Source: Candidatus Pacearchaeota archaeon CG1_02_39_14 (lineage in GTDB: Archaea > Nanobdellota > Nanobdellia > Pacearchaeales > GW2011-AR1). From it: a stretch of 64,000 bases of DNA. A model generated the notes under the pieces. That model saw only the letters and a list, made by a program, of their open reading frames with translations, did no database searches and had not been told where the DNA came from. Position numbers and translations under genes: made by a program. Numbering within the stretch: position 1 is the stretch's first letter; each line of letters starts with the position of its first letter. Shown piece by piece: positions 16,579 through 30,548 of the stretch. Where the stretch lies: the NCBI GenBank assembly GCA_001872315.1, contig MNVZ01000010.1:1057-65056 (forward strand). Direction: 5' to 3'.

Positions 16579-17403
16579 CTAAACTGAATATCCTGCATCT
16601 CTTAATCCTTCCCAACCGTCAAGGAATCCCTGTACAAGATGCCTCTGAATTTCATGAATTTCTTCCCCAGAAATTAATGCCCAAACGTCAAGGAATCCTT
16701 TCCTGGCGCTCAAAATAGGAATCGGAATTTCTCCTACTCCCTCTACTAGTTCAGCAAGTCCAATAACTCTGCTTCCGTCTCTTGACATAACTTTCTTCCC
16801 ATTCAATTTTTTCATGGCCTTTTTGAAGTCTTTGCCGGTGGCTATCCTAAGCTTATGAGCTGCCTTCAAATGCCCTTCTTTAGCGTGAACGAAACTGCAC
16901 CCCAAATCAAGATAGGTAATGTCTCCTCCGTAAGTGCCATTAGGAGCAAAGGCATAATTCTGTCTTCTTCCTACAATGTCCGAGATTAAAAGAGATTCTA
17001 AATAAGGAATTTCTGCATTTAATGCCTCCTTCTCTCTTAGATTTTCCTCCGTTGATTTTGGATTTGGGACCATTCTTGAAACAAAATAATAATCTCTTCC
17101 TGAAGGGTCTTTCCCCCCATGCTCTCTCCAATCATAAAATACAACATCCCTTCTCTTATTCAATAGAACAAAAGTTTCCGGAGTTTTAAGCCCGAAGATT
17201 CTAGCGAGCTCAGCAGTCAGGGCTTCATACACAGGCTGATTGTGTGCATTAAAAGAAGATACCTCTCCATTTCCTATGTGGGACCCATAACAATATTTGA
17301 AGTACGCACTAAAAGATCCGAATCCATTGGAGATTTCACACTTTCCGCCCGGGTTGCTTCCTTTTCTTTCGCTGATTATTCTAACCTTTGTTCCCATAAA
17401 CAA
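16579..17403 (-). CDS. hypothetical protein inserted between gatE and gatD
   Basis: 274 aa long ORF with coding-like composition. No family recognised. Confidence 0.45.
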   Translation of the reverse strand: MFMGTKVRIISERKGSNPGGKCEISNGFGSFSAYFKYCYGSHIGNGEVSSFNAHNQPVYEALTAELARIFGLKTPETFVLLNKRRDVVFYDWREHGGKDPSGRDYYFVSRMVPNPKSTEENLREKEALNAEIPYLESLLISDIVGRRQNYAFAPNGTYGGDITYLDLGCSFVHAKEGHLKAAHKLRIATGKDFKKAMKKLNGKKVMSRDGSRVIGLAELVEGVGEIPIPILSARKGFLDVWALISGEEIHEIQRHLVQGFLDGWEGLRDAGYSV

Positions 17404-17962: not shown

Positions 17963-19219
17963 TCATCCTGCCAGGAACTCATTAAACTCGCCTGCAAAAT
18001 TCTCAAGCAATTTTTCCTTTTCCTTGCCTTTCCAGTTTCTATGTCCTAAAACCCATCCTAATTTTACGAAAGCCGTTTCAGAAAGCATGTCTTTCAAATA
18101 CAAAACGCCTGCCTTCTCCAATTCCCTTCCGGTAGAATATACTTTGGGATTCAAAGCCCCATAAATTGTCCCTGCAGTGCCACAGATAATCATTCCTGAC
18201 TTAACACAATTTTTAATTTTGCCAATCCATCCAGAATTAACATGCCCAAGCCCAGTCATCTCGATTACAATTCCTTTGTGCCCTTTCTCCTTATAGTAAT
18301 CTAAAATACCAGGGTCCTGCCCAGGATAAAATTTCACTAAAGCAACTTTGTTGCTGAAGCTATCATCCAATTCCAATTTTTCTATATTCTGATTTCCTAC
18401 ATTATACTCTTCAAGAAATTCAACCTTTCCCCCAATTTTAGCAATTGGCTTACAATTTATCGCCTTGAAGGTGTCTCTTCTTGAAGTATGCATCTTCCTG
18501 ACTTTAGTTCCCCGCAAAGCATAGCAGCAATCATCACTCTCTGATGCATGCCCGACAATAACAACTTCAGCACAATTAGACAAAGCAAATTTTGCAGCAC
18601 ATTCTAAATTAAGTTCGGCATCGCTGCTTGCCCTGTCAATGCTTCTCTGCGAAAATGTCAAAACAACTGGTTTGTTCAGATTCTTAAGCATAAAACTCAA
18701 AACCGAAGAAGTATAATGCAATGTGTCCGAGCCGTGTGTTATTATAACTCCCTTAATCTCCTTGTCATCACACATCTTTTTTGCTTCCTTGGCAATTAGC
18801 TTCCAGTGTCCTGAATCCATATTCTCTGACAGCTCCATAAAAGGAGAGCTTATTTTAATGTCATATTTTTCAAACAATCCTGGATAAAACTGCGCAAACT
18901 CGCCAACATCAGTCAATGCCTTCACTCCTCCAGTACGCGAATCCAATTTACTCGCAATCGTCCCTCCCGTAACTATCAGCCCAATCTTCGGCTTCCCCTT
19001 TGAACTTGGAATCTTATATTCCTTTTTCTCTTCCTTATACTTCCTTATTACATTTATCTCAAAAACATTTTCCTTTGGAATTCCAATATTGTACCCTGAT
19101 TCCAGCTTAACAAGAATAACGTCCTTATCATAGCTCTCTAAAATTATCCCTTTGATTTCTTTCTTAGCCAGTTTTACAGAAACATAATCCCCTGCATTTG
19201 CCTTAATTTCCATAATCAA
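17963..19219 (-). CDS. gatD: Glu-tRNA(Gln) amidotransferase subunit D
   Basis: 418 aa with an asparaginase-like domain carrying the active-site motif GLIVTGGTIASK plus the N-terminal GatD-specific domain. Confidence 0.8.
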   Translation of the reverse strand: MIMEIKANAGDYVSVKLAKKEIKGIILESYDKDVILVKLESGYNIGIPKENVFEINVIRKYKEEKKEYKIPSSKGKPKIGLIVTGGTIASKLDSRTGGVKALTDVGEFAQFYPGLFEKYDIKISSPFMELSENMDSGHWKLIAKEAKKMCDDKEIKGVIITHGSDTLHYTSSVLSFMLKNLNKPVVLTFSQRSIDRASSDAELNLECAAKFALSNCAEVVIVGHASESDDCCYALRGTKVRKMHTSRRDTFKAINCKPIAKIGGKVEFLEEYNVGNQNIEKLELDDSFSNKVALVKFYPGQDPGILDYYKEKGHKGIVIEMTGLGHVNSGWIGKIKNCVKSGMIICGTAGTIYGALNPKVYSTGRELEKAGVLYLKDMLSETAFVKLGWVLGHRNWKGKEKEKLLENFAGEFNEFLAG

Positions 19220-19247: not shown

Positions 19248-19694
19248 CTAAGGTCCGAACGCCCTGACAATCAATGCACTACCTTCCTGACAATCAGCCC
19301 ATTGATCAACAGCATCCATATAAAATTGCCAAGTCCGTCTTGTAGGATTATACCTCATGGCTCTTGAGACTATAGGTTCGTTCTGACTATCCTTGATACA
19401 ATTAACAAATCTATAACCATTCCTTCCCAGCCCTCCGCCATCTGCTGCATCTACGCAAGGCTGCTTACCATCAACATGATTGCAAAGCCACGAGCCAAAT
19501 ATCTCTCCATTGCCTATCGCATCCTGCAAGGTCATCTCAGTACCATTGATGTCAACCCAAACTCTGTCTCCCCCATGTCCAGGATTTGGAATAGGCCCAT
19601 CATAAGCCAAGACTAATAAAACCCCCGCAAAAATCAAAATGGAAGCAATAATTCCAACACCAACCCTTTTATTGATATTCACCTCAAACTTCAT
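19248..19694 (-). CDS. secreted Cys-rich small protein (distant paralog of 26120-26593 and 27343-27780)
   Basis: 148 aa. The N-terminus MKFEVNINKR plus hydrophobic anchor ending in VLAYDGP resembles MNVNINLEKKYFF...VVYAQD and MEFNISIEKRYFF...AVYAYG. Confidence 0.5.
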   Translation of the reverse strand: MKFEVNINKRVGVGIIASILIFAGVLLVLAYDGPIPNPGHGGDRVWVDINGTEMTLQDAIGNGEIFGSWLCNHVDGKQPCVDAADGGGLGRNGYRFVNCIKDSQNEPIVSRAMRYNPTRRTWQFYMDAVDQWADCQEGSALIVRAFGP

Positions 19695-19737
19695 GATTCC
19701 TAGAAAGAAAAGGAATATTTAAACATTATCGTTAGTA

Positions 19738-19760
19738 AACATTGTAACGTTAAAGGGAGT
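19738..19760 (+). repeat. left terminal inverted repeat (23 bp) of putative cargo transposon
   Basis: ACATTGTAACGTTAAAGGGAGTT. Its perfect reverse complement lies at 26093-26115. Confidence 0.7.
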
Positions 19761-19854
19761 TTCTGAAAGTTGACAATCCATCAATGAACTTAGTTCGTAA
19801 CTTAATAGTTAATACAATGGAAACTTATTTAAATTATAAAAATATAAACAAATC

Positions 19855-20802
19855 ATGAAAACAAGAAGACCGGGGATAAGTGCTTTAATAAGATGTAAAG
19901 ATGAAGAAGATTTTGTATATTTAAGTTTACTCTCTATTAAAGATTCTGTCGACGAGATCATTTTTATTGATAATGCCTCATGTGATAATAGCATAAACGA
20001 AGCTAAAAGATTTAGGGATTCTCATTTTAAAAATAAAAGATTTGTTCTGGATTCTTATGAAAAAGATACATTTACTGGAGATAATCTTGCAGAAATGAAT
20101 AATTATGCATTATCAAAAACAGAAGGAGAATGGATATTTAAGTGGGATGTTGATACTATTGCCCAAACTAAAGGAAATCATTCCCTTTATAAGATTAGAG
20201 AAGCAATTAAAAGAAAAGATATAGACATATTCAGGTTCGGCTATTGGAATCTATGGGGAGATCCATTTCATTTCATTTCTAATAGTAAGGATGAACCCGA
20301 ATACGGACCAACAGGTTGCGGATTTGAAATGCAAGGTTTAGAACAGAGACTTTTTAGATTTGATGAATCATTTTATTATAGTATGACTCAATATGGGGAG
20401 CATTTTTGGGAGAGACCAAATTTTCCTTCTGGATTTAAACAAGAATATTTAGAATTCATTCCTGGAGTTCATATGCAAACAGTAAAACCTTCAGAGATTA
20501 TAGCTCGGAGGTATTTTCTTACCCGATATGGTCCAAAGGAAAGGGAAAGTTACAAAACATTTTTAGATTTTGTAATGTCTGAAGTAAGAAAAGAAGGGTT
20601 TAGTAACCTTCTAGATTTTGGGAAATTTTTATTAATTGATAAAGTAAATAAACAAGGTAGAAAATTTGAAAGAGAATATCCTATCACGTTAGAGTCTTCC
20701 GATTTGCTAAAAAAACCTCCCTATCTATTTTTATTTGAAGGAAGCATATGCATAGACCGAACAGAACCAATTAAACGATTTAATTACTTTGAGTTAAAAT
20801 GA
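19855..20802 (+). CDS. glycosyltransferase family 2
   Basis: 315 aa with an N-terminal GT-A fold and DxD-like signature (ISALIRCKDEEDF...IFIDNASCDNS). Confidence 0.7.
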   Translation: MKTRRPGISALIRCKDEEDFVYLSLLSIKDSVDEIIFIDNASCDNSINEAKRFRDSHFKNKRFVLDSYEKDTFTGDNLAEMNNYALSKTEGEWIFKWDVDTIAQTKGNHSLYKIREAIKRKDIDIFRFGYWNLWGDPFHFISNSKDEPEYGPTGCGFEMQGLEQRLFRFDESFYYSMTQYGEHFWERPNFPSGFKQEYLEFIPGVHMQTVKPSEIIARRYFLTRYGPKERESYKTFLDFVMSEVRKEGFSNLLDFGKFLLIDKVNKQGRKFEREYPITLESSDLLKKPPYLFLFEGSICIDRTEPIKRFNYFELK

Positions 20803-21887
20803 AAATACTCAGCTCTCTACATTCATATAATATTACTGGAGTTTTAAAGCAAAATATATCCTTATTAAAATATCTGAGAACTAGTGCTGGAATAGATGCT
20901 TTAGTTATTGGTCCAAATAAGAATTTGGGAATGGAAATTCTTGAAGAAGAAGGATTTATTGCTGAGACTACTTTTGGAAGATCAATTAATGATATTTTAC
21001 ATAGGCACAATTTCCATCCCGATCTTATTTTATCAGAATCTTTATTTTCCTCCGATGTTTCTGATTTATCTAAAGAAATAGGAGCAAAACATATTATTCG
21101 CATTCATGAAGAAATACCATTTCAATCAGGAAAGGGACTATGGTTATTACCTTATAGACCAATCAACGAATATTTCCAAAAGTTTAGAAATTCGAAAGTG
21201 ATCTTTCCATCAAGCCATACTGCTAATCATTACAGAATGCCATTGCAAGAATTTGACATTGATTTTAGTGTGATTCATGGTTCTATAGATGAAGAAAGAT
21301 TAAAAGAACAAAAAGAAGTGTTGAATTTTAGTGATTTTCAGATATTACAACTTGGAACACTTTATGAGAGAAAGGGAGGAATAAATACTTTAGAATCTTT
21401 TTTTAATTTTTTGAATAAAGAAGGAGTGGAAAACGCTAATCTAATTTTCGCAGGAGTAAGGAATGCAAATGAAAAAGAAATTCAATACAAAGAGAGACTA
21501 GAAAGAAGAGCAAAAGAGCTCGGAATTGAGGAAAAGGTCAGATTTTATGATTCGATGAAAAACCCGTATGCGTTAATGAAGGGATCTTCTATAGTAACAT
21601 TACATTCTTATTCAGAATGTTTTCCAACTGTTTTTTTGGAAGCAATGTATTTCGGAAAAATGATAGTCTCTAGTAATGTTGGAGGAGTAGGTGAACAAGT
21701 ATATGAAGGCGTCACAGGGTATTTATTCAATTCTGGGGACATTAATGAACAGTCTAATGCATTTTCAAAGTTATATGATGAAAGACATTTACTAGAGAGT
21801 AAAAGTAAGATTATAAAAGATAGATACATTGATTATTTTTCACAAGAATCTTCAGGAGATAAATTTTTAAATTTTTTAGAAAAATGA
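20799..21887 (+). CDS. glycosyltransferase family 4 (GT-B, group 1)
   Basis: 362 aa with C-terminal GT1/GT4 motif (EAMYFGKMIVSSNVGGVGEQVYEGVTGYLF). ATGA coupling on both sides. Confidence 0.75.
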   Translation: MKILSSLHSYNITGVLKQNISLLKYLRTSAGIDALVIGPNKNLGMEILEEEGFIAETTFGRSINDILHRHNFHPDLILSESLFSSDVSDLSKEIGAKHIIRIHEEIPFQSGKGLWLLPYRPINEYFQKFRNSKVIFPSSHTANHYRMPLQEFDIDFSVIHGSIDEERLKEQKEVLNFSDFQILQLGTLYERKGGINTLESFFNFLNKEGVENANLIFAGVRNANEKEIQYKERLERRAKELGIEEKVRFYDSMKNPYALMKGSSIVTLHSYSECFPTVFLEAMYFGKMIVSSNVGGVGEQVYEGVTGYLFNSGDINEQSNAFSKLYDERHLLESKSKIIKDRYIDYFSQESSGDKFLNFLEK

Positions 21888-23149
21888 GATCTATAGATGA
21901 AATAGTTGAAGAGAAAGTTGAACGAAGATTTAATAGTATCTTAAAAACGATAGATGAAGGATCAGAATTAGAGGATGTTAGTCTAAATGAAATACTAAAT
22001 GTTGCTGGGAAGTTAAAAAGAACCGACCTAATCAATCTCGGAGAGATGCCTAAGATAGAAAGAGACGCCGAAATAAAGTATAGGAAAGCACTTTCAACTT
22101 TATCAACGGATGTTGCTGAAGAGTATGTCAAAATAAAAGACAGCAATAATCCTGCACGCCTCTCTTCACTCAATCTACCAATAGACGATAAACAGTTTAA
22201 ATTAAATTATATAGAAGACAAAATTGCCTATAATCCAGAAATGGATAGAAGTTATCTTGTCGAAGCAATAAGAACAATTGCTGAAAGAAAAGAACAAATT
22301 GAACTTAAAAAGATCAGAGGTTTACATAAATCAGTTTCTAGAAAATCGGAATTCGGAGACTTTTTTAATTTGTACTCTGAAATTTCTCAAGATGCTTCTG
22401 CGGTTCTTTTTGATAGGTCTTTGCAAAAAAACCTAATACTGGCTTGTGATGGAAATAATCTTGAGGTTTTGGTTTACAAGTGTTTGAGATTGACTCATGA
22501 TGCTGGAATTCCCAATATCTGTAGCCACCTTGATGATTATGTGACACAAGATAAAGACGGTAAAGATATAAAATTCTTAGGAGAACCTGATAAATATCAG
22601 CTAGATAGAACAAGAGAACTATCCCAAATGGTATCCAGCAGAATACAAAATCTTTCTTTAATAATGTTAATTTCTGATTTTGATTTATGGAAGTTTGGTT
22701 CTGAAACTGTAACAAGACTTTTACCAAAAGCCAAAGATTACATAAAACATGTTAAAGGCTATCTCCCGGAAATTAAGGTAATTTCTGAAACAGATTATGT
22801 AAAAAGTTTTCCTGATTTTGATTCAAACTTTAATAGGGTTTTTGAATCTATAAGAAATAGAGATGGTAGATTTATACACCCAGCAGAATTCTCAAGGATA
22901 GAAACAGATTATAATAATACTTTCGCTGGTACGCTTAACGAGTGGACTGAGGAAAAAAATCTTCATTACTCTCTTTCGTCTGTTTCAAGAAACATTGCTA
23001 CAGGTATTACATTGGATGAAGCGAGAGGTAATTTTTTATTTGTATTTTATAACAATAATACGATTAATGGGGAGCGGATTAATCTAAATGTTAGAGATAA
23101 AATTCCTTGCCTGGCATATCCAAAAATGAAGTCAAAACAAATCCTGTGA
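21884..23149 (+). CDS. hypothetical protein (third gene of coupled GT operon)
   Basis: 421 aa ORF whose start overlaps the GT4 stop (ATGA). No recognised domain. Confidence 0.5.
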   Translation: MRSIDEIVEEKVERRFNSILKTIDEGSELEDVSLNEILNVAGKLKRTDLINLGEMPKIERDAEIKYRKALSTLSTDVAEEYVKIKDSNNPARLSSLNLPIDDKQFKLNYIEDKIAYNPEMDRSYLVEAIRTIAERKEQIELKKIRGLHKSVSRKSEFGDFFNLYSEISQDASAVLFDRSLQKNLILACDGNNLEVLVYKCLRLTHDAGIPNICSHLDDYVTQDKDGKDIKFLGEPDKYQLDRTRELSQMVSSRIQNLSLIMLISDFDLWKFGSETVTRLLPKAKDYIKHVKGYLPEIKVISETDYVKSFPDFDSNFNRVFESIRNRDGRFIHPAEFSRIETDYNNTFAGTLNEWTEEKNLHYSLSSVSRNIATGITLDEARGNFLFVFYNNNTINGERINLNVRDKIPCLAYPKMKSKQIL

Positions 23150-23935
23150 TGCAAAAGTCTTTGATAATTCAATCGCTTTTGTTGCAGATTCCATATCCCC
23201 TCTCGGTAGATCAATACAAAGTGCTTGAGTAAGTTTACTTGTTATCATGTAAAATAGCAGGATCTCTAAGGAATTTTTGTTATGGGGATAATTTTCTAAA
23301 ATTGCATCAAAAAATGGACGATGATTAGATCCTTCTAGTTCTGATATGTCTGCTAAAAGATTTCCTACATCCACTAAAGGATCAAAAATTCCGAAGTATT
23401 CAAAATCAATTATTGCCTTAACTGTATCATCTTGATTGAAGAAAAAATGTCTCATCTTTGCATCAAACCAAGTATAAGAAAATTTTTCTGGTTCTAATTT
23501 AGATCCTAATTTATTTAGTATGCTCTCAAGATTCCCCATATCAAAATGATTCTTTAAACCACCCACATATTTATTGATAACATGCCTTGTAAGACTATAC
23601 GAAAACCCTTGGATTGAAAATCTCGGATCCGAAATATCTTCAGACACCCTTTCATTTATTGGTATATTGTGAAGATTATATAAAACACGCGAAGCATTTT
23701 TAACTCGCTCCTTACTAAGTTTTTCTAATCCATCTTCATGATTTATTTTTTCAAAAGAAATTGCTCTATTTTCGTGATCTATGTGAATTATTTTTGCAAG
23801 AGGAAAGTTATTTTTATTTAATATTTTATAAGCCAATAACTCTCTTTCAAATCCATTATTTGAATCGTAGGTCTTTGTTACAGAATTTTCTCCATAAACA
23901 ATTTTATTATGATGCCTTCTTTCTCGATTATCCAT
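23132..23935 (-). CDS. APH/choline-kinase-like phosphotransferase
   Basis: 267 aa with Brenner/APH motif (HNIPINE...) and metal-binding IIDFEYFGIFDPLVDVGNLL, typical of the aminoglycoside phosphotransferase/choline kinase family. Confidence 0.6.
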   Translation of the reverse strand: MDNRERRHHNKIVYGENSVTKTYDSNNGFERELLAYKILNKNNFPLAKIIHIDHENRAISFEKINHEDGLEKLSKERVKNASRVLYNLHNIPINERVSEDISDPRFSIQGFSYSLTRHVINKYVGGLKNHFDMGNLESILNKLGSKLEPEKFSYTWFDAKMRHFFFNQDDTVKAIIDFEYFGIFDPLVDVGNLLADISELEGSNHRPFFDAILENYPHNKNSLEILLFYMITSKLTQALCIDLPRGDMESATKAIELSKTFASQDLF

Positions 23936-23948
23936 AACAATGATTTAT

Positions 23949-24812
23949 TCAATTTATTTTTAAATCTTTGCCATCGTATTCTGAAATACCTTCAAATTTG
24001 AACGGGCTTTTTTTGTTACCTTCTCCAAAAGATCTTATCTTTAATATCGGGAAATTATACTCTTTACACATATCAAGTATCTCATTTTTTAATGTTGTCT
24101 CTTTTTCTTCTTCAATTAATGGAAAGCCCCCAAGTATTAGTCCATTAATTTTTTTAAAAATTCCTCTAATCTTGAATTGGTAAAGCCAATATTTTATCAT
24201 CCTATAATCTTTTTCTGTGTGATTTTCCAAAGCAAGAATTTTATTCTCAAAATTTATCAATTCTGGATTTGTCGCGATAATGTTTAATAGAGCTATATCA
24301 TTTCCTGGGATAAGCTTTCCAGAAAATTGTCCTTTTTTATAAACATTTATCTCTTCTGCTTTTATATTCAGAGGTTCTCTTTTTAAAATTGTGTCAAATC
24401 TTTCTATTGATTTCTCATCAAGTTTGGAGAAAGATTTTAAGTTGAGACCAACAAAAACTTCCAGATTAGATATATTATTTAAATATGGTGCAAGATGACA
24501 AAAATCACTATTGCCTAAAATGATTTTTTTATTATTCAACTTAATATTTATATTTAGATAATTAATTAATTCTATACTTCTAACTCCTCCCTTAGCAACC
24601 ATTATCAGGTCTATTCCATCATCAGCTATAGCTTTATTGAGAGATTTTGCAAGAAATTTTGGATCTATAGTTGAGAGGGTATTTTTTATTAAAGAAATTT
24701 TAACATGGTGGTATTTGTTTTGTATAAAACTCATATCTCTTTCTATCTTAGTTAAATCTTCTTTTTTTATTTTTCCTGACAGATTTATTATTACGATATT
24801 TTTAGCTTTCAT
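23949..24812 (-). CDS. S66-family LD-carboxypeptidase/MccF-like serine peptidase (tentative)
   Basis: 287 aa with a GxSD nucleophile-elbow-like motif (ILGNSDFCHL) and size/organisation compatible with S66. No strong catalytic triad can be confirmed by eye. Confidence 0.4.
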   Translation of the reverse strand: MKAKNIVIINLSGKIKKEDLTKIERDMSFIQNKYHHVKISLIKNTLSTIDPKFLAKSLNKAIADDGIDLIMVAKGGVRSIELINYLNINIKLNNKKIILGNSDFCHLAPYLNNISNLEVFVGLNLKSFSKLDEKSIERFDTILKREPLNIKAEEINVYKKGQFSGKLIPGNDIALLNIIATNPELINFENKILALENHTEKDYRMIKYWLYQFKIRGIFKKINGLILGGFPLIEEEKETTLKNEILDMCKEYNFPILKIRSFGEGNKKSPFKFEGISEYDGKDLKIN

Positions 24813-24837
24813 ATATTAAAAGATTTATTCCAGATAT

Positions 24838-25776
24838 TTAAACTTTGCTCAATTTAATCAAGTCCAGCCACTTATTAACTCCTAACTCTAAATGAGGTAT
24901 AGCAACTTCTGCAGGTGTCTTTTTACCTAAAGTCATATGTTTTCTATTAAAGTTATAGTTAATTTCTAGACCTTTCATTATTGCATGGGCACTTTCTATA
25001 CAACCATGAAAACCTCTCATGACTTTTGTTCTTTCTCTAATAGTATTATGTAACCTCTCAATTGGATAATTAAAACCTCTTTCATCTGCTATTACAACAT
25101 TATGGATTATCTTGCTCTTAGTTCTTGAAGAAGCGTGATACGGAGATTGTAAACTAAAAGTCTTCCTTAACACTCTTGGGTAACCTCTTAGTCCATCTGT
25201 TGTAACAATCTCAACCTGTTCTTCTGTCTTAAATTTTGCTCTCTTCATAACTTTGATTAAATTTTCATTAGTTCTACTTCCAATATACTCACCTGTAACC
25301 ATAAACTTAGTTTCTACATCAAAAGTATCAACAAACCAATTCTGTTCTTTTCCTCTGTGATATTTACTTTTTCTTCTGTAATATTCCATTTCATCGCTTT
25401 GCATTTCCTTTCCACATTTTATTGGAATGTTATCAACCAAATTTCCAACCATTTCAGCATATTTTATTATCCATCTGTAAACTGACATATGACTTGAGTT
25501 GTAAGGGTAGAAAGCTTGGAAATGTTCTTGTACTTTTCTTAATGAAACGCCTTTGTAATACAAATCAATTCCAGCAGTAATTTTGTTCTCGTTATTTCTC
25601 ATTCTATAAAACCCATCATCAATGACAAACCTAAAATTACATTCTTTACATCTGTATCTTTGAATTTTACCTCTATTTTGAGTTTTCCTTTTTCCGTCTT
25701 TCTTAATCTTGTTAGAACTACATTTAGGACAAGTTACATTTTTATACTTCTGTTGAATTATCTCTTTGGATTTCAT
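24838..25776 (-). CDS. DDE-type transposase with N-terminal C4 zinc ribbon (IS6/IS1-like)
   Basis: 312 aa. N-terminal CPKC...CKEC zinc finger. The core ends in the integrase-like signature NYNFNRKHMTLGKKTPAEV, with acidic residues spaced as in DDE transposases. Confidence 0.7.
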   Translation of the reverse strand: MKSKEIIQQKYKNVTCPKCSSNKIKKDGKRKTQNRGKIQRYRCKECNFRFVIDDGFYRMRNNENKITAGIDLYYKGVSLRKVQEHFQAFYPYNSSHMSVYRWIIKYAEMVGNLVDNIPIKCGKEMQSDEMEYYRRKSKYHRGKEQNWFVDTFDVETKFMVTGEYIGSRTNENLIKVMKRAKFKTEEQVEIVTTDGLRGYPRVLRKTFSLQSPYHASSRTKSKIIHNVVIADERGFNYPIERLHNTIRERTKVMRGFHGCIESAHAIMKGLEINYNFNRKHMTLGKKTPAEVAIPHLELGVNKWLDLIKLSKV

Positions 25777-25793
25777 CTTAGCGGGTGGAATCT

Positions 25794-25811
25794 GGGACTC
25801 TTCGGAGTCCC
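25794..25811 (-). promoter_or_regulatory. GC-rich hairpin in transposase 5' leader
   Basis: GGGACTC-TTCG-GAGTCCC, a perfect 7-bp stem with a 4-nt loop, 18-35 nt upstream of the transposase start codon in otherwise AT-rich DNA. Confidence 0.3.
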
Positions 25812-25920
25812 TGTATATTATTAACTAATAATATATCAGTTAAGTATATTAGCTATTTAAACTTTTCTATAGTAGAGAATATACTAAATATTTATATACT
25901 AATTAATCATATATCTATTG

Positions 25921-26076
25921 ATGGCGAGAGTAAAAATAGAAGTTGAAGGTTTCCAATGTGAGAGATGTGGGCATAAATGGGTTCCTCGTGGAAGTGATGA
26001 AGAACCTGCTGTTTGCCCAAAATGTAAAAGCCCATATTGGAATAAACCAAGAAAACGAAAAATAAAGAAACATTAA
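25921..26076 (+). CDS. small zinc-ribbon protein (51 aa), not in the six-frame track
   Basis: MARVKIEVEGFQCERCGHKWVPRGSDEEPAVCPKCKSPYWNKPRKRKIKKH. Two CxxC pairs and a basic tail. Followed by a T7 run. Confidence 0.4.
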   Translation: MARVKIEVEGFQCERCGHKWVPRGSDEEPAVCPKCKSPYWNKPRKRKIKKH

Positions 26077-26083
26077 TTTTTTT
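26077..26083 (+). terminator. oligo-T archaeal-type terminator
   Basis: TTTTTTT immediately after the TAA stop of the small zinc-ribbon ORF. Confidence 0.3.
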
Positions 26084-26092
26084 GAGCTAAAT

Positions 26093-26115
26093 AACTCCCT
26101 TTAACGTTACAATGT
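26093..26115 (-). repeat. right terminal inverted repeat (23 bp)
   Basis: AACTCCCTTTAACGTTACAATGT is the exact reverse complement of 19738-19760. Confidence 0.7.
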
Positions 26116-26119
26116 ATCA

Positions 26120-26593
26120 TTAGTATCTGTTAGAAATTATCTTACAGCAACTTATTGCGATGCTCGCCTCAGCAATGTATTCCTCGTTATCTGTTAGGCA
26201 AACCTGTCCCTTGTGGTTAAGATCCCCAGGATAAACATCCCATTGCTCCTGCCTGGAATCATTGCTAGTAACCATAATGTCACATCCCGTTTTCTTATAT
26301 CCTTTTGAACATCCTAAGCCCCACCATTCCCCGCCTTCTTCAGGTCCAAGTTCAGATGCATTCCCTATAGGAATAATGGTCCCTGGCTTGCCTGAAATCA
26401 TTCTTACAAGAGGGGCATCATTGCCCATTCTGGTCGCATAAACGCAATCAAGACTGAGCCCAACATCCGGTTTGATTAACAAAGTAGGATCTTCCAAATC
26501 CTGGGCATAAACTACAAAAAAACCTCCAATCAAAAGCACTAATCCAAGAATTCCAAAAAAATATTTCTTTTCCAGATTAATGTTAACATTCAT
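26120..26593 (-). CDS. secreted Cys-rich paralog family protein A
   Basis: 157 aa. N-terminus MNVNINLEKKYFF plus anchor. Shared blocks with 27343-27780: LDCVYATR, WGLGC..YKKTGC, C(L/V)TD(N/D)EEY, SI.CCKI. Confidence 0.55.
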   Translation of the reverse strand: MNVNINLEKKYFFGILGLVLLIGGFFVVYAQDLEDPTLLIKPDVGLSLDCVYATRMGNDAPLVRMISGKPGTIIPIGNASELGPEEGGEWWGLGCSKGYKKTGCDIMVTSNDSRQEQWDVYPGDLNHKGQVCLTDNEEYIAEASIAISCCKIISNRY

Positions 26594-26651
26594 AAAAATA
26601 TATAGCTCAGAAGTTTATAAAATATGGCAGTCTTAGACCATACTACAATAA

Positions 26652-27356
26652 TCAGAAGCTTCCTGAACTAGTGCAGCAAATCTTCAGAGGATAATTATTT
26701 GCATCCCGAGATTCTAAGTGAGCATTCCTTTCTCCAGTCAAAGAAGCAATTTCTTCTTCATCCGCAAGGCATTCAGCTCTTGAAGTGCATTGCAAGTCCC
26801 CATAACATACAGGAAGATTATAATCTCCTGAAAAAACTTCAGGTGCTTCTGCATGTGAGTTAAAGCTCTTTATCAACCTTAAAACAAGGTTATTTTCCTC
26901 TCCTGAATTGCCGGAACATTGATGTGGATCTCTGTTTCCAAAGTCAAACATCTCTCCAAATATCTCATTGTAACACACCTTCAAAGAATAAACTGTCTCA
27001 TTCCATAAAGCACCATGTGTATTCTCTTCTCCATATAGCCTCATAATTATTTGTCCGTCATCACATATATTTCTCTTTGAAGAGCCACCACCCCCGTTTC
27101 CTCCGCCACGATAAGTCCTGTTGTTCTCATAATTGATAGGGTTATATCCATATTCATTATTATTCAAGTTAGAATTATCGTAATTACCAAGGCCCGTATA
27201 ATTATAATAATCTCTTGATGGGTTAGGTTCGGGATCTTCCTCAGAAGTGTAAACCCTTACAAGCAAAAACATGGAAACAACAATCAACAGGAGCAATAAA
27301 ATAGCTAAAACGATAACTGAAATCTTATCTTTGCTATTCATTTTAATTAGCCGCAA
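26652..27356 (-). CDS. secreted Asn/Tyr-rich and Cys-rich protein (same family, C-terminal CC motif)
   Basis: 234 aa with an N-terminal anchor, a low-complexity N/Y/G linker, and a Cys-rich domain ending in KICCTSSGSF. 14-nt overlap with the upstream paralog. Confidence 0.5.
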   Translation of the reverse strand: MRLIKMNSKDKISVIVLAILLLLLIVVSMFLLVRVYTSEEDPEPNPSRDYYNYTGLGNYDNSNLNNNEYGYNPINYENNRTYRGGGNGGGGSSKRNICDDGQIIMRLYGEENTHGALWNETVYSLKVCYNEIFGEMFDFGNRDPHQCSGNSGEENNLVLRLIKSFNSHAEAPEVFSGDYNLPVCYGDLQCTSRAECLADEEEIASLTGERNAHLESRDANNYPLKICCTSSGSF

Positions 27357-27780
27357 TCTTGCAACAAACGATGCTTAACCCAGCACTTGCATTATATTCT
27401 TCATCATCGGTTACACAACCTTGTCCATCACTAGTAGAAGTAACATCAGAATCGATAGATTCACCTGTAAAATCAGCTAAATAACATCCAGTCTTCTTGT
27501 AATCATTAACACATCCAAGTCCCCACTTCTCGTCAAATCCTCCCCCAATTCCTATACTCTCAATAGCACTGGCATCCCCTGAAATAATAACCGGTTCTTC
27601 TCCAGCATTTCTAATCGCGTAAGTACAATCTAATTTTATATCCAACTCTCCAACACTATGCCCAAAAACCTCTGGCTCATTAGTGCCGTAAGCGTAAACT
27701 GCAAAAATTCCTGTAATCAGAAATAAAGCTCCTAAAATCGTAAAGAAATATCTTTTCTCAATACTAATGTTAAACTCCAT
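27343..27780 (-). CDS. secreted Cys-rich paralog family protein B
   Basis: 145 aa with clear homology to 26120-26593 (see the shared blocks listed there). Confidence 0.55.
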   Translation of the reverse strand: MEFNISIEKRYFFTILGALFLITGIFAVYAYGTNEPEVFGHSVGELDIKLDCTYAIRNAGEEPVIISGDASAIESIGIGGGFDEKWGLGCVNDYKKTGCYLADFTGESIDSDVTSTSDGQGCVTDDEEYNASAGLSIVCCKIAAN

Positions 27781-27837
27781 ATATTTGTTGTCATTTTATA
27801 GTTTATAAAGATTATTATAGTAAGATTAAAGAGAACT

Positions 27838-29271
27838 TTAGTAACTTTTCGCTATGTAAGCCCAATACTTCGCCTTCTCATCACAAACAACACAATCTCC
27901 CAATTTTGCCGACTGATTATCAGGAATGTTCAATACCTTCGCCCCTGTCTTTGCCTTCAAATCATCTTCACACTCCAAGATTCCACATAAAGGAGAGAAC
28001 GCAATCTTCTTTCCAAGAATCGCCTTTTCCAATTCCTTCATATTTTTACATTCAACAATATTATCATACAATAATTTCTTAGCCCCCTCAAAGAGATTAT
28101 CCTGTATCTCTTCCAAAACCCTTGAAATATATTTATCCAAATCCTTCAATTTAACACTTTCCTTCTTTCCAGTATCCCTTCTGGAAACAACAACCTCTTT
28201 CTTAGCCAGGTCTTTAGGCCCTATTTCAATTCTCAATGGAATCCCCTTCATCTCCCATTCTGCAAACTTATTTCCTGGCTTATATCCTTCCCTGTCGTCT
28301 AATAATGCATCATATTTTCTAAGCTTCCCTTCAATCTCCCTGCCTGCCTTCAATACTTTTTCTTTAGAATCCTCAAAGATAATAGGGACTATCACAACTT
28401 TATTAGAAGCCATTTTAGGAGGCAATATCAATCCTTTAGAATCTGAATGGATTGCAAACATCACTCCAAGCATTCTTGTAGAAATTGCAAAAGTATTCTG
28501 CCATGCATATTTCTTCTTCTCATCCTTGTCTAGGAACTGAATGTCGTACGCTTTCGCAAAATGCTGCCCGTCATGATGAAAGTCGGGCCCTTGTATTGCT
28601 TTCCCGTTAGGCATAAAAAATTCCAGGCTTGTCGAATATTCTGCGCCTGCGAATTTCTCTTTCTCGCTCTTTCTCCCAATAAGAGAAGGCAAAGCAAGAA
28701 ACTTCTCGCAAACATCTCTGTAAATTCCTATTACCTGCTTTTCCTCTGCTTTTGCCTCTTTCTCTGTCGCATAAACAGTATGCCCTTCATTCCACAAAAA
28801 TTCCCTTGTCCTTAAAAAAGGAACAGGATGCTTGAATTCCCAGCGCACAACGTTATTCCACTGGTTATACTTCAAAGGCAAATCCCTCCAGCTCCTTATC
28901 CATTTAGAATAAGATTCATACATTATTGTCTCACTTGTTGGCCTAATAGCAAGCCTTTCAGACAGCTTGGAATCTCCTGCTTCAGTGACCCACGCAACTT
29001 CCGGTTTAAAACCAGCAGTATGCTCTTTCAACTTGTCAAATAACCTTTCAGGAATAAGCAATGGAAAATAAACATTCTGAATTCCAAGTCTCTTAAATCT
29101 CTTATCCACTTCCTCCCTAATTTTCTCCCATATTGCATAGGCCCCGGGCTTGTAAACAATCATCCCTGAAACAGACGAATAGTCGGCCAGGTCCGCTTTC
29201 AGCATTATCTGCGTAAACCATTCAGAAAAATCATCCTTTTCAGCAACAATGCCCTTCTCATTCTTGGCCAT
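27838..29271 (-). CDS. proS: prolyl-tRNA synthetase, archaeal/eukaryal type
   Basis: 477 aa class II core with a C-terminal zinc-binding-like domain (CGILECEDD...CVVCDE), typical of archaeal-type ProRS. Confidence 0.85.
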   Translation of the reverse strand: MAKNEKGIVAEKDDFSEWFTQIMLKADLADYSSVSGMIVYKPGAYAIWEKIREEVDKRFKRLGIQNVYFPLLIPERLFDKLKEHTAGFKPEVAWVTEAGDSKLSERLAIRPTSETIMYESYSKWIRSWRDLPLKYNQWNNVVRWEFKHPVPFLRTREFLWNEGHTVYATEKEAKAEEKQVIGIYRDVCEKFLALPSLIGRKSEKEKFAGAEYSTSLEFFMPNGKAIQGPDFHHDGQHFAKAYDIQFLDKDEKKKYAWQNTFAISTRMLGVMFAIHSDSKGLILPPKMASNKVVIVPIIFEDSKEKVLKAGREIEGKLRKYDALLDDREGYKPGNKFAEWEMKGIPLRIEIGPKDLAKKEVVVSRRDTGKKESVKLKDLDKYISRVLEEIQDNLFEGAKKLLYDNIVECKNMKELEKAILGKKIAFSPLCGILECEDDLKAKTGAKVLNIPDNQSAKLGDCVVCDEKAKYWAYIAKSY

Positions 29272-29894: not shown

Positions 29895-30548
29895 TTACAT
29901 ACATCTATTTGCATTGCACCATTGAGTAGGGCACCTTAAGGTTGGAACCCATGTTCCTGCTGGGCCACAAGTGTATTCACATGCACCTACATCAAGTGGG
30001 AGCTCAAATTCCATACATGCAAGTTGTCCAGGAGTGCAGGCCCCTAGCTTAGCAGGGCATTTTGGCGGAGCAACTGGAGCTGGTTTTGGTTTTCCCCAAA
30101 GAGCAAAATAATTACCGTTATTCTGGCTTTCAATCTGCCCATTAAGAATTACACTAAGAAGCTCTTCTGAAGCTCTTGTTTCTTCTGGATTCAGGCTAGA
30201 GGCTATAGTCTTGCCCTCTTCTGTCCCTCTGGCTACATCCAAAAAATTTTCATTCGAAAAAGAGGAGAGGGTTTCTCTGTTCTCTGTAGAAAGAACCGCT
30301 AAGCCCGAGTAAATAATTCCAAGCAAAGTTTCATCAGAAAGCTGCGATGTATAATAGTCAGCATTCTTGACATATTGCTTCAGGTCAAACTTCCCTGCGT
30401 AAGCAAAAGAAGCAAAAGATGAAAAAACAAGAACTCCGACAAGTAAGATTCCAACGATTAAGGATTCCTTGGTTAGCGATCTCTTAACTCCTAAACTCAT
30501 CAAAAACGCTAGTTTTCTTCTTTTAAATACTTTATTGTGGTAAATCAA
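29895..30548 (-). CDS. membrane-anchored protein with C-terminal Cys-rich module
   Basis: 217 aa with a TM anchor and a C-terminal CPAKLGACTPGQLAC...CEYTCGP...CPTQWCNANRC. Confidence 0.4.
   Translation of the reverse strand: MIYHNKVFKRRKLAFLMSLGVKRSLTKESLIVGILLVGVLVFSSFASFAYAGKFDLKQYVKNADYYTSQLSDETLLGIIYSGLAVLSTENRETLSSFSNENFLDVARGTEEGKTIASSLNPEETRASEELLSVILNGQIESQNNGNYFALWGKPKPAPVAPPKCPAKLGACTPGQLACMEFELPLDVGACEYTCGPAGTWVPTLRCPTQWCNANRCM

Follow-up and report, generated by a model that had tools for sequence, protein, structure and literature searches.

A putative exported-protein locus between the prolyl-tRNA synthetase and gatD genes of a Pacearchaeota archaeon, and the transposon inserted in it

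A 64,000-nt stretch of contig MNVZ01000010.1 from Candidatus Pacearchaeota archaeon CG1_02_39_14 (hereafter the window) contains four open reading frames (ORFs), C, B, A and D, which all lie on the minus strand between the genes for prolyl-tRNA synthetase (ProRS) and GatD, with a mobile element between A and D (Table 1). A preliminary description of this DNA had listed the same four ORFs, all of which are there, and had read them as a tandem array of paralogous surface or secreted proteins in what it took to be an episymbiotic archaeon. The host is a DPANN archaeon, and the proteins do have the look of surface or secreted ones: each has a Lys-rich N-terminus followed by a hydrophobic helix of ~20 residues, and their Cys counts (6, 6, 4 and 8 across the four proteins) are all even. 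That observation was largely correct; the reading of the four genes as paralogs was not.

Table 1 Features of the ProRS-gatD stretch, with positions in the window.
Feature	Position	Strand	Description
ProRS gene	27838-29271		flanking gene
C-B unit TATA-like box	27802-27809	-	TTTATAAA, ~22 nt upstream of C ATG; putative promoter
Gene C	27343-27780	-	145 aa; leader MEFNISIEKRYFF, hydrophobic helix, shortened 'FGHSVGE' motif, 6-Cys all-beta head; in every related locus
Gene B	26652-27341	-	229 aa from conserved ATG; signal-anchor helix, N/G/S/Y-rich linker, 8-Cys domain of three ~35-40-aa repeats
A TATA-like box	26614-26622	-	TTTTATAAA, ~21 nt upstream of ATG; putative promoter
Gene A	26120-26593	-	157 aa; C paralog with the same leader and 6-Cys head; in some lineages only
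Right target-site duplication	26116-26126		ATCATTAGTAT; holds A stop codon and last sense codon
Inserted element	19739-26115		6.4 kb; perfect 23-nt inverted repeats at both ends; GC content ~0.30 vs ~0.39 in flanks
52-aa zinc-ribbon ORF	25918-26076		in element
IS1/IS6-like DDE transposase	24838-25776	-	in element
Peptidase S66	23949-24812		element passenger
APH-like kinase	23132-23935		element passenger
421-aa unknown ORF	21884-23149		element passenger
Two glycosyltransferase-like ORFs	19855-21887		element passengers
Left target-site duplication	19728-19738		ATCGTTAGTAA; directly against repeat
D TATA-like box	19714-19723	-	TTTAAATATT, ~20 nt upstream of ATG; putative promoter
Gene D	19248-19694	-	148 aa; full N-terminal module (leader, helix, IPNPGHGGDRVWVDINGTEMTLQDAI), then 4-Cys head unrelated to A/C
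gatD	17963-19219		flanking gene

TATA-like boxes end 20-22 nt before the ATG of C, A and D and B has no such box, which points to three transcription units: C-B, A and D. The start of B is most likely a conserved ATG at 27341 rather than the TTG at 27356: the 234-aa ORF described earlier exists, but the conserved ATG gives a predicted protein of 229 residues. This start lies 1 nt after the C stop codon in the window and in 6 of 7 other distinct loci; the spacer is 5 nt in the remaining one (L021).

Eight distinct related loci carry the C-B core in this slot, and the cluster lies between ProRS and GatD wherever the flanking genes are visible. The preliminary description had proposed a survey of how variable the family is among relatives, and such a survey finds C and B constant and the gene order kept, with A and D coming and going. 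The window has the arrangement C-B-A-[island]-D, L001 has C-B-A-D, L005 lacks D (C-B-A), and L008/L018 lacks A (C-B-D). A is also absent from L009/L019 and L021, in which a long form of C is followed by B and by a D with a different, Cys-free head, and L020 has a long C and a long B only, with neither A nor D. Since C and B are always adjacent and nearly always coupled, they probably act together. The long C proteins (232-237 aa; L009 4040-4744, L020 4001-4699, L021 2265-2978) carry an insert of ~85 residues, '...GSYK(I/L)GFEKSDGS.VYVGWEEDATPQLQ...', which separates the FGH motif from the six-cysteine head.

Sequence divergence in the four proteins is mostly faster than in the flanking genes, and less even. 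Between the window and L001, identity is 76% for ProRS and 81% for GatD, and 53%, 55%, 61% and 75% for C, B, A and D; between the window and L008 it is 82% for GatD, 86% for C, 56% for B and 48% for D (A is absent there, and ProRS was not compared). A word-indexed protein search returned 3 relatives for A, 8 for B and 6 for D. B-type proteins are rare: they make up 8 clusters among 5.8 billion proteins, and a scan of a genome collection holding one genome for each of 185,579 species found B in only 2 loci, so that B is confined to a narrow clade. A metagenome scan with a closer head alignment gave 4 loci.

The element between A and D is a DDE transposon with passenger genes. Its perfect 23-nt inverted repeats (19739-19761 and 26093-26115) are the sole two copies of this sequence in the window, where none would be expected by chance, and they are flanked by an imperfect target-site duplication of ~10-11 bp, whose copies share 9 of 11 positions, or 9 of 10 if the last is left off. 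The transposase has an N-terminal zinc ribbon and is nearest to those of IS1 (52 bits, NCBIfam cut-off 100) and IS6 (51 bits, cut-off 125). The insertion, which had been proposed from the window alone, is confirmed by the empty site in L001: on this 150-kb contig the order is ProRS-C-B-A-D-GatD, with an A-D spacer of 39 nt and no island, so the four genes were once contiguous as had been supposed. The element is in all same-species contigs listed (n=5, L013-L017) and absent from 7 of 7 other distinct related loci compared.

The right repeat arm ends 4 nt before the A stop codon (26120-26122), as noted in the preliminary description. The left arm had been placed in the promoter region of D; it does lie 44 nt upstream of the D ATG, but 15 nt beyond the conserved TATA-like box. 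This box is part of a 17-nt block, GAAAAGGAATATTTAAA, that is identical in L001 and lies between D and the left repeat, which puts the insertion beyond the D core promoter and not inside it. The element inserted at the A stop codon and left all four reading frames and the D core promoter intact: it is a passenger-carrying transposon fixed in a natural population without disruption of the locus.

A and C are clearly paralogous, with 40% identity along the whole sequence (composition-adjusted BLASTP E 1e-32), so that their similarity goes beyond composition; the blocks LDC.YA.R, WGLGC..YKKTGC, C(L/V)TD..EE and CCKI are found in both, and 40 columns are invariant across six orthologs. P0001 and P0003 are orthologs of A. 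D has the same N-terminal layout as A and C, M..(I/V)N(I/L)EK(K/R)Y and then a hydrophobic helix (BLASTP E 3e-4 and 8e-3), and a profile-profile comparison with hhalign relates it to them with 96% probability (E 1.7e-9). This match is limited to residues 1-37: the domain of D beyond residue ~60 has no relation to the A/C head in profile comparison, so that of the claimed kinship of D the N-terminal layout stands and the rest does not. B has no detectable homology to the other three (BLASTP E 0.11; hhalign probabilities 1%, 7.6% and 0.2%), and on these profile comparisons it is rejected as a diverged A/C paralog. Its own repeats, ..L....N[TSA]H......Y.L.[VI]C[YC], match one another pairwise in register (hhalign E 1.2e-4 to 7e-4). 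On these comparisons the locus is best described as a paralog pair, A and C, with a third gene, D, that shares the leader only and an unrelated fourth gene, B.

A 17-nt inverted match (16/17) was also seen between D (19575-19591, 'IPNPGH' codons) and A (26492-26508, 'YAQDLE' codons), the two arms being at corresponding positions directly behind the membrane helix. The match may be fortuitous (by our estimate roughly 0.1 such matches are expected in the region) or the trace of a small ancient inversion.

The N-terminus that A, C and D have in common is far more widespread than the locus. The four proteins had been described as having no obvious known homologs, and scans of Pfam, NCBIfam and PHROGs do return nothing meaningful for A-D, no family in these libraries covering them and the N-terminal module being absent from them. 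A profile of A, C, D and their relatives, however, matches 1101 of 1.84 billion cluster representatives at E<=1e-3, of which 224 stay in at a cut-off of E<=1e-10; the matches almost always fall on profile positions 1-70. The module reads M-K-I-E-V-N-x-E-K-K-Y-F-F, followed by ~20 hydrophobic residues up to V-Y-A-Y and usually by (I)PNPGHG.D.VW....G.E.TLQ.AI..G; this last PGH-TLQ motif is tripled in tandem in some members, and a 38-residue profile of it gave motif coincidences only against PDB sequences (e.g. an HMA-domain helix, E 0.016). The heads after the module are highly diverse, including small Cys-rich domains, thrombospondin type 1 (TSP1), InlB B-repeat and RCC1 propeller. Of 149 representatives, 128 have an even number of Cys, and a CC[KR]xx ending is common, which fits disulfide-bonded extracellular proteins.

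Several of these proteins, P0096 among them, have a full D-type module fused to an A/C-type head, which makes A and C members that have kept the motif in truncated form, 'FGHSVGE' (C), or have lost it (A). On the evidence of these profile matches we assign A, C and D to a large unnamed superfamily. Its members come mostly from metagenome contigs and are archaeal where a context or name is given. A 6130-aa protein from Bacteroidia (P0158) is probably not a true member: its score is the sum of 12 weak 'PNPGHAIDSVWINGKGY' repeats that resemble the start of the archaeal motif, and these may reflect an InlB B-repeat-like relation or coincidence. On a more distant archaeal contig (L022 6001-6984), a superfamily member with three PGH-TLQ motifs and a TSP1 domain (P0036) also lies between ProRS and GatB/GatD, which suggests that this slot is an old home for such genes.

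More ORFs with a membrane helix and a Cys-rich C-terminus adjoin the ProRS-GatD slot (29895-30548 on the minus strand of the window, L009 1452-2057 and L020 7139-7750); these have neither the shared leader nor a match in Pfam. In addition, a 274-aa ORF on the minus strand (16579-17403), also with no Pfam match, is kept beside a DUF1003 gene in relatives (L008 4394-5209; 272-aa genes in L013-L015).

The head common to A and C spans ~95 residues with six Cys in the pattern C ... C-x2-G-[YW]-x2-TGC ... C ... CC. An AlphaFold2 (AF2) model of C, built from 13 sequences, has an overall predicted local distance difference test score (pLDDT) of 77.9 and displays a helix at residues 9-33 and an all-beta head at 48-144; pLDDT is 85-93 over most of the head and about 60 in a loop near residues 101-110. 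Where no homologs had been recognized, this head gives weak and consistent matches to the C-terminal modules of PCSK9, which have a resistin-like fold with three disulfides each (C1-C6, C2-C5 and C3-C4). Against PDB sequences, all 17 matches of the full-length profile are to PCSK9 (best E 0.58), and the head-only profile matches PCSK9 entry 7anq_A with E 5.1e-4 and 16 further PCSK9 entries with E 0.01-0.03, the next unrelated entry being at 0.57. The invariant Cys of A and C (C ... C-x8-C ... C ... CC, with the CC near the C-terminus) align to Cys of all three PCSK9 modules. With Pfam PCSK9_C3, 5 of 13 heads give sub-threshold matches (best family score 16.8 bits, for full-length P0134, against a cut-off of 26.7), and Pfam Resistin matches one relative, also below threshold. 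In a Foldseek search of the PDB, the top match is PCSK9 (4k8r_B, E 0.35, probability 0.72), which recurs (3gcw_A, probability 0.75) amid scattered unrelated matches of low probability; none of the PCSK9 matches is significant (E 0.35 and above). These lines of evidence are not fully independent, since the two profiles and the Pfam scans use the same head sequences.

We think it more likely than not that the A/C head resembles the resistin-like modules of PCSK9 at the level of the fold. The resemblance may reflect either common descent or convergence. PCSK9 C-terminal and resistin modules are extracellular protein-binding modules, and to our knowledge they have so far been known from animals only. 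Profiles of B and D gave only chance matches against PDB sequences, a search of a viral structure library gave no significant match, and a literature search on the motifs, on Cys-rich secreted proteins of DPANN archaea and on resistin/PCSK9 in archaea found nothing relevant.

On balance, we favor reading the ProRS-gatD stretch as a conserved, fast-evolving exported-protein locus of one Pacearchaeota clade, which holds members of a superfamily with swappable heads that would bind something at the cell surface, and which has received a transposon in its A-D spacer. The core would be the tightly coupled C-B unit, with A, a second copy of C, and D as optional additions, each with its own TATA-like box. 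The Lys-rich start and hydrophobic helix would bring the proteins through the membrane so that the C-terminus lies outside, the N-terminal module serving to export or anchor the protein and the remainder being an interchangeable, usually disulfide-rich head in which the cysteines would be paired. B, unrelated to these, would be anchored in the membrane and have a flexible linker before its eight-Cys triple repeat. The most likely role is extracellular binding: heads at or near the cell surface would bind ligands outside the cell, plausibly those of a host or partner, which fits both the adhesion-type heads of other superfamily members and the rapid, mosaic way in which the locus evolves. Afterwards the helix may either be kept as an anchor or be removed at V-Y-A|Y, a site that resembles one for signal peptidase I; the ~20-residue core that follows the Lys-rich start is long enough for a permanent anchor.

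Several points weigh against this reading. The features of the helix fit cleavage and anchoring alike. The statistics of the PCSK9/resistin link are borderline, as the best sequence E-value (5e-4) concerns one entry, Pfam scores stay below the gathering cut-off and Foldseek is non-significant, and Cys-rich sequences can attract each other. Structure prediction had been proposed as a check for a shared disulfide-stabilised fold; the head of C is modelled with confidence, but the AF2 model of B (8 sequences) has a pLDDT of 38, too low for a fold. Most superfamily members come from anonymous metagenome contigs, which limits any claim of a DPANN-wide spread.

The proteins could instead be pilin-like subunits, major and minor, with a leader cut by a prepilin peptidase, the helix forming a filament core and the disulfide-bonded heads decorating it. 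A short conserved leader before a ~20-residue helix and a beta head of ~100 residues with disulfides, an N-terminus common to many otherwise unrelated proteins, and several such genes side by side are all as expected of pilins. However, archaeal class III signal peptides have a [KR]-[G/A/S] site that is not seen here: in a logo of 67 members the helix is preceded by K-K-[YF]-F-F with no conserved small residue, and the site resembling that of signal peptidase I comes after the helix. A, B, C and D have no match to a pilin N-terminal model of Pfam or NCBIfam at E<=1, and no pilus ATPase, platform protein or prepilin peptidase is among the neighbours checked, which cover part of the genome only (tRNA synthetases, GatD/GatB, a dehydrogenase, peptidases, a ligase and similar). 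We consider a pilin-like role unlikely.

It is likewise improbable that the proteins are secreted antagonistic effectors, that is, small disulfide-rich toxins or bacteriocin-like peptides directed at a host or competitor. In favor of this, they are small and Cys-rich, look exported, evolve fast and vary in copy number; there is also the likeness of the A/C head to resistin-like modules, and mammalian resistin-like molecules can permeabilise bacterial membranes. B and two relatives also weakly match a putative bacteriocin family (PF25184; E 0.028 for B), but this match covers the membrane helix and low-complexity linker only and, at 15.9 bits, falls far short of the cut-off of 40. No immunity gene, processing protease or export ABC transporter adjoins the cluster, and the TSP1, InlB B-repeat and RCC1 heads of the superfamily are binding modules, not toxins.

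The preliminary reading of the genes as one family of four tandem-duplication paralogs, with B a diverged member keeping only the C-terminal 'CC' module, appears largely refuted at the sequence level and is very unlikely: all four proteins are small, anchored and Cys-rich with a Cys-Cys pair near the end, and the best local match of B to the A/C head does fall on the 'C.(T/A)D.EE ... CC' segment, but this match spans 12 columns with E 0.27 and gives the lowest of the three profile probabilities above, the triple repeat of B with its conserved His has no counterpart in A, C or D, and D has a head of its own.

DPANN archaea live attached to other cells, and we know of almost no proteins that make this contact. 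The exported-protein locus favored here offers several ways in: its N-terminal signature pulls out more than 1000 candidate surface proteins, it is a concrete, syntenic and rapidly varying site that can be compared across strains, and the PCSK9/resistin-like head is a testable structural lead to a ligand. Published surveys contain many membrane or extracellular families specific to Pacearchaeota and Woesearchaeota with no predicted function (PMC8204110). The present case leads to a large family of exported archaeal proteins that has no name as yet, and perhaps to a PCSK9/resistin-like module in prokaryotes, with a putative function and a structural link that is borderline. A bolder and rather doubtful extension would turn the N-terminal module into a tag dedicated to export or sorting in Pacearchaeota-like DPANN archaea, borne by more than 1000 families of surface proteins with swappable heads (a toolkit for episymbiont contact), with the ProRS-GatD slot as a hot spot and the A/C head as a genuine prokaryotic relative of PCSK9 and resistin.

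Comparison with known systems places the parts of the locus differently. The element has what is found in insertion sequence-like transposons with passenger genes, namely perfect terminal repeats, a direct target duplication, a DDE transposase and an empty site in a relative; it differs from IS1/IS6-like transposons in a transposase that stays below the NCBIfam cut-offs, in the length and imperfection of its duplication and in its 6.4 kb with five or six passenger genes. Archaeal type IV pilins have a similar short leader, ~20-residue helix, small beta head and clustered genes, whereas here there is no cleavage motif, no match to a pilin model and no pilus machinery among the neighbours checked. 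PCSK9_C1-C3 and resistin, the sole consistent matches by both sequence profile and predicted fold, have like the A/C head a six-Cys module of beta strands of ~70-95 residues, in which C-x2-G-[WY]-x2-TGC aligns, as does a Cys-Cys pair shortly before the end. The A/C head differs in a longer segment between the first and second Cys and in being a single module, not three, hung on a membrane helix in an archaeal host, and the scores are borderline, missing the Pfam gathering thresholds. The N-terminal module finds its closest analogy in two extended signal peptides, each marking a set of surface proteins: YSIRK-G/S in Gram-positive bacteria and ESPR in autotransporters. It has no sequence similarity to either, belongs to an archaeal host and is usually conserved past the helix into 'PNPGH...TLQDAI', and any dedicated sorting role would be hypothetical; what all three have in common is a conserved N-terminal region before a hydrophobic core, shared by otherwise unrelated surface proteins.

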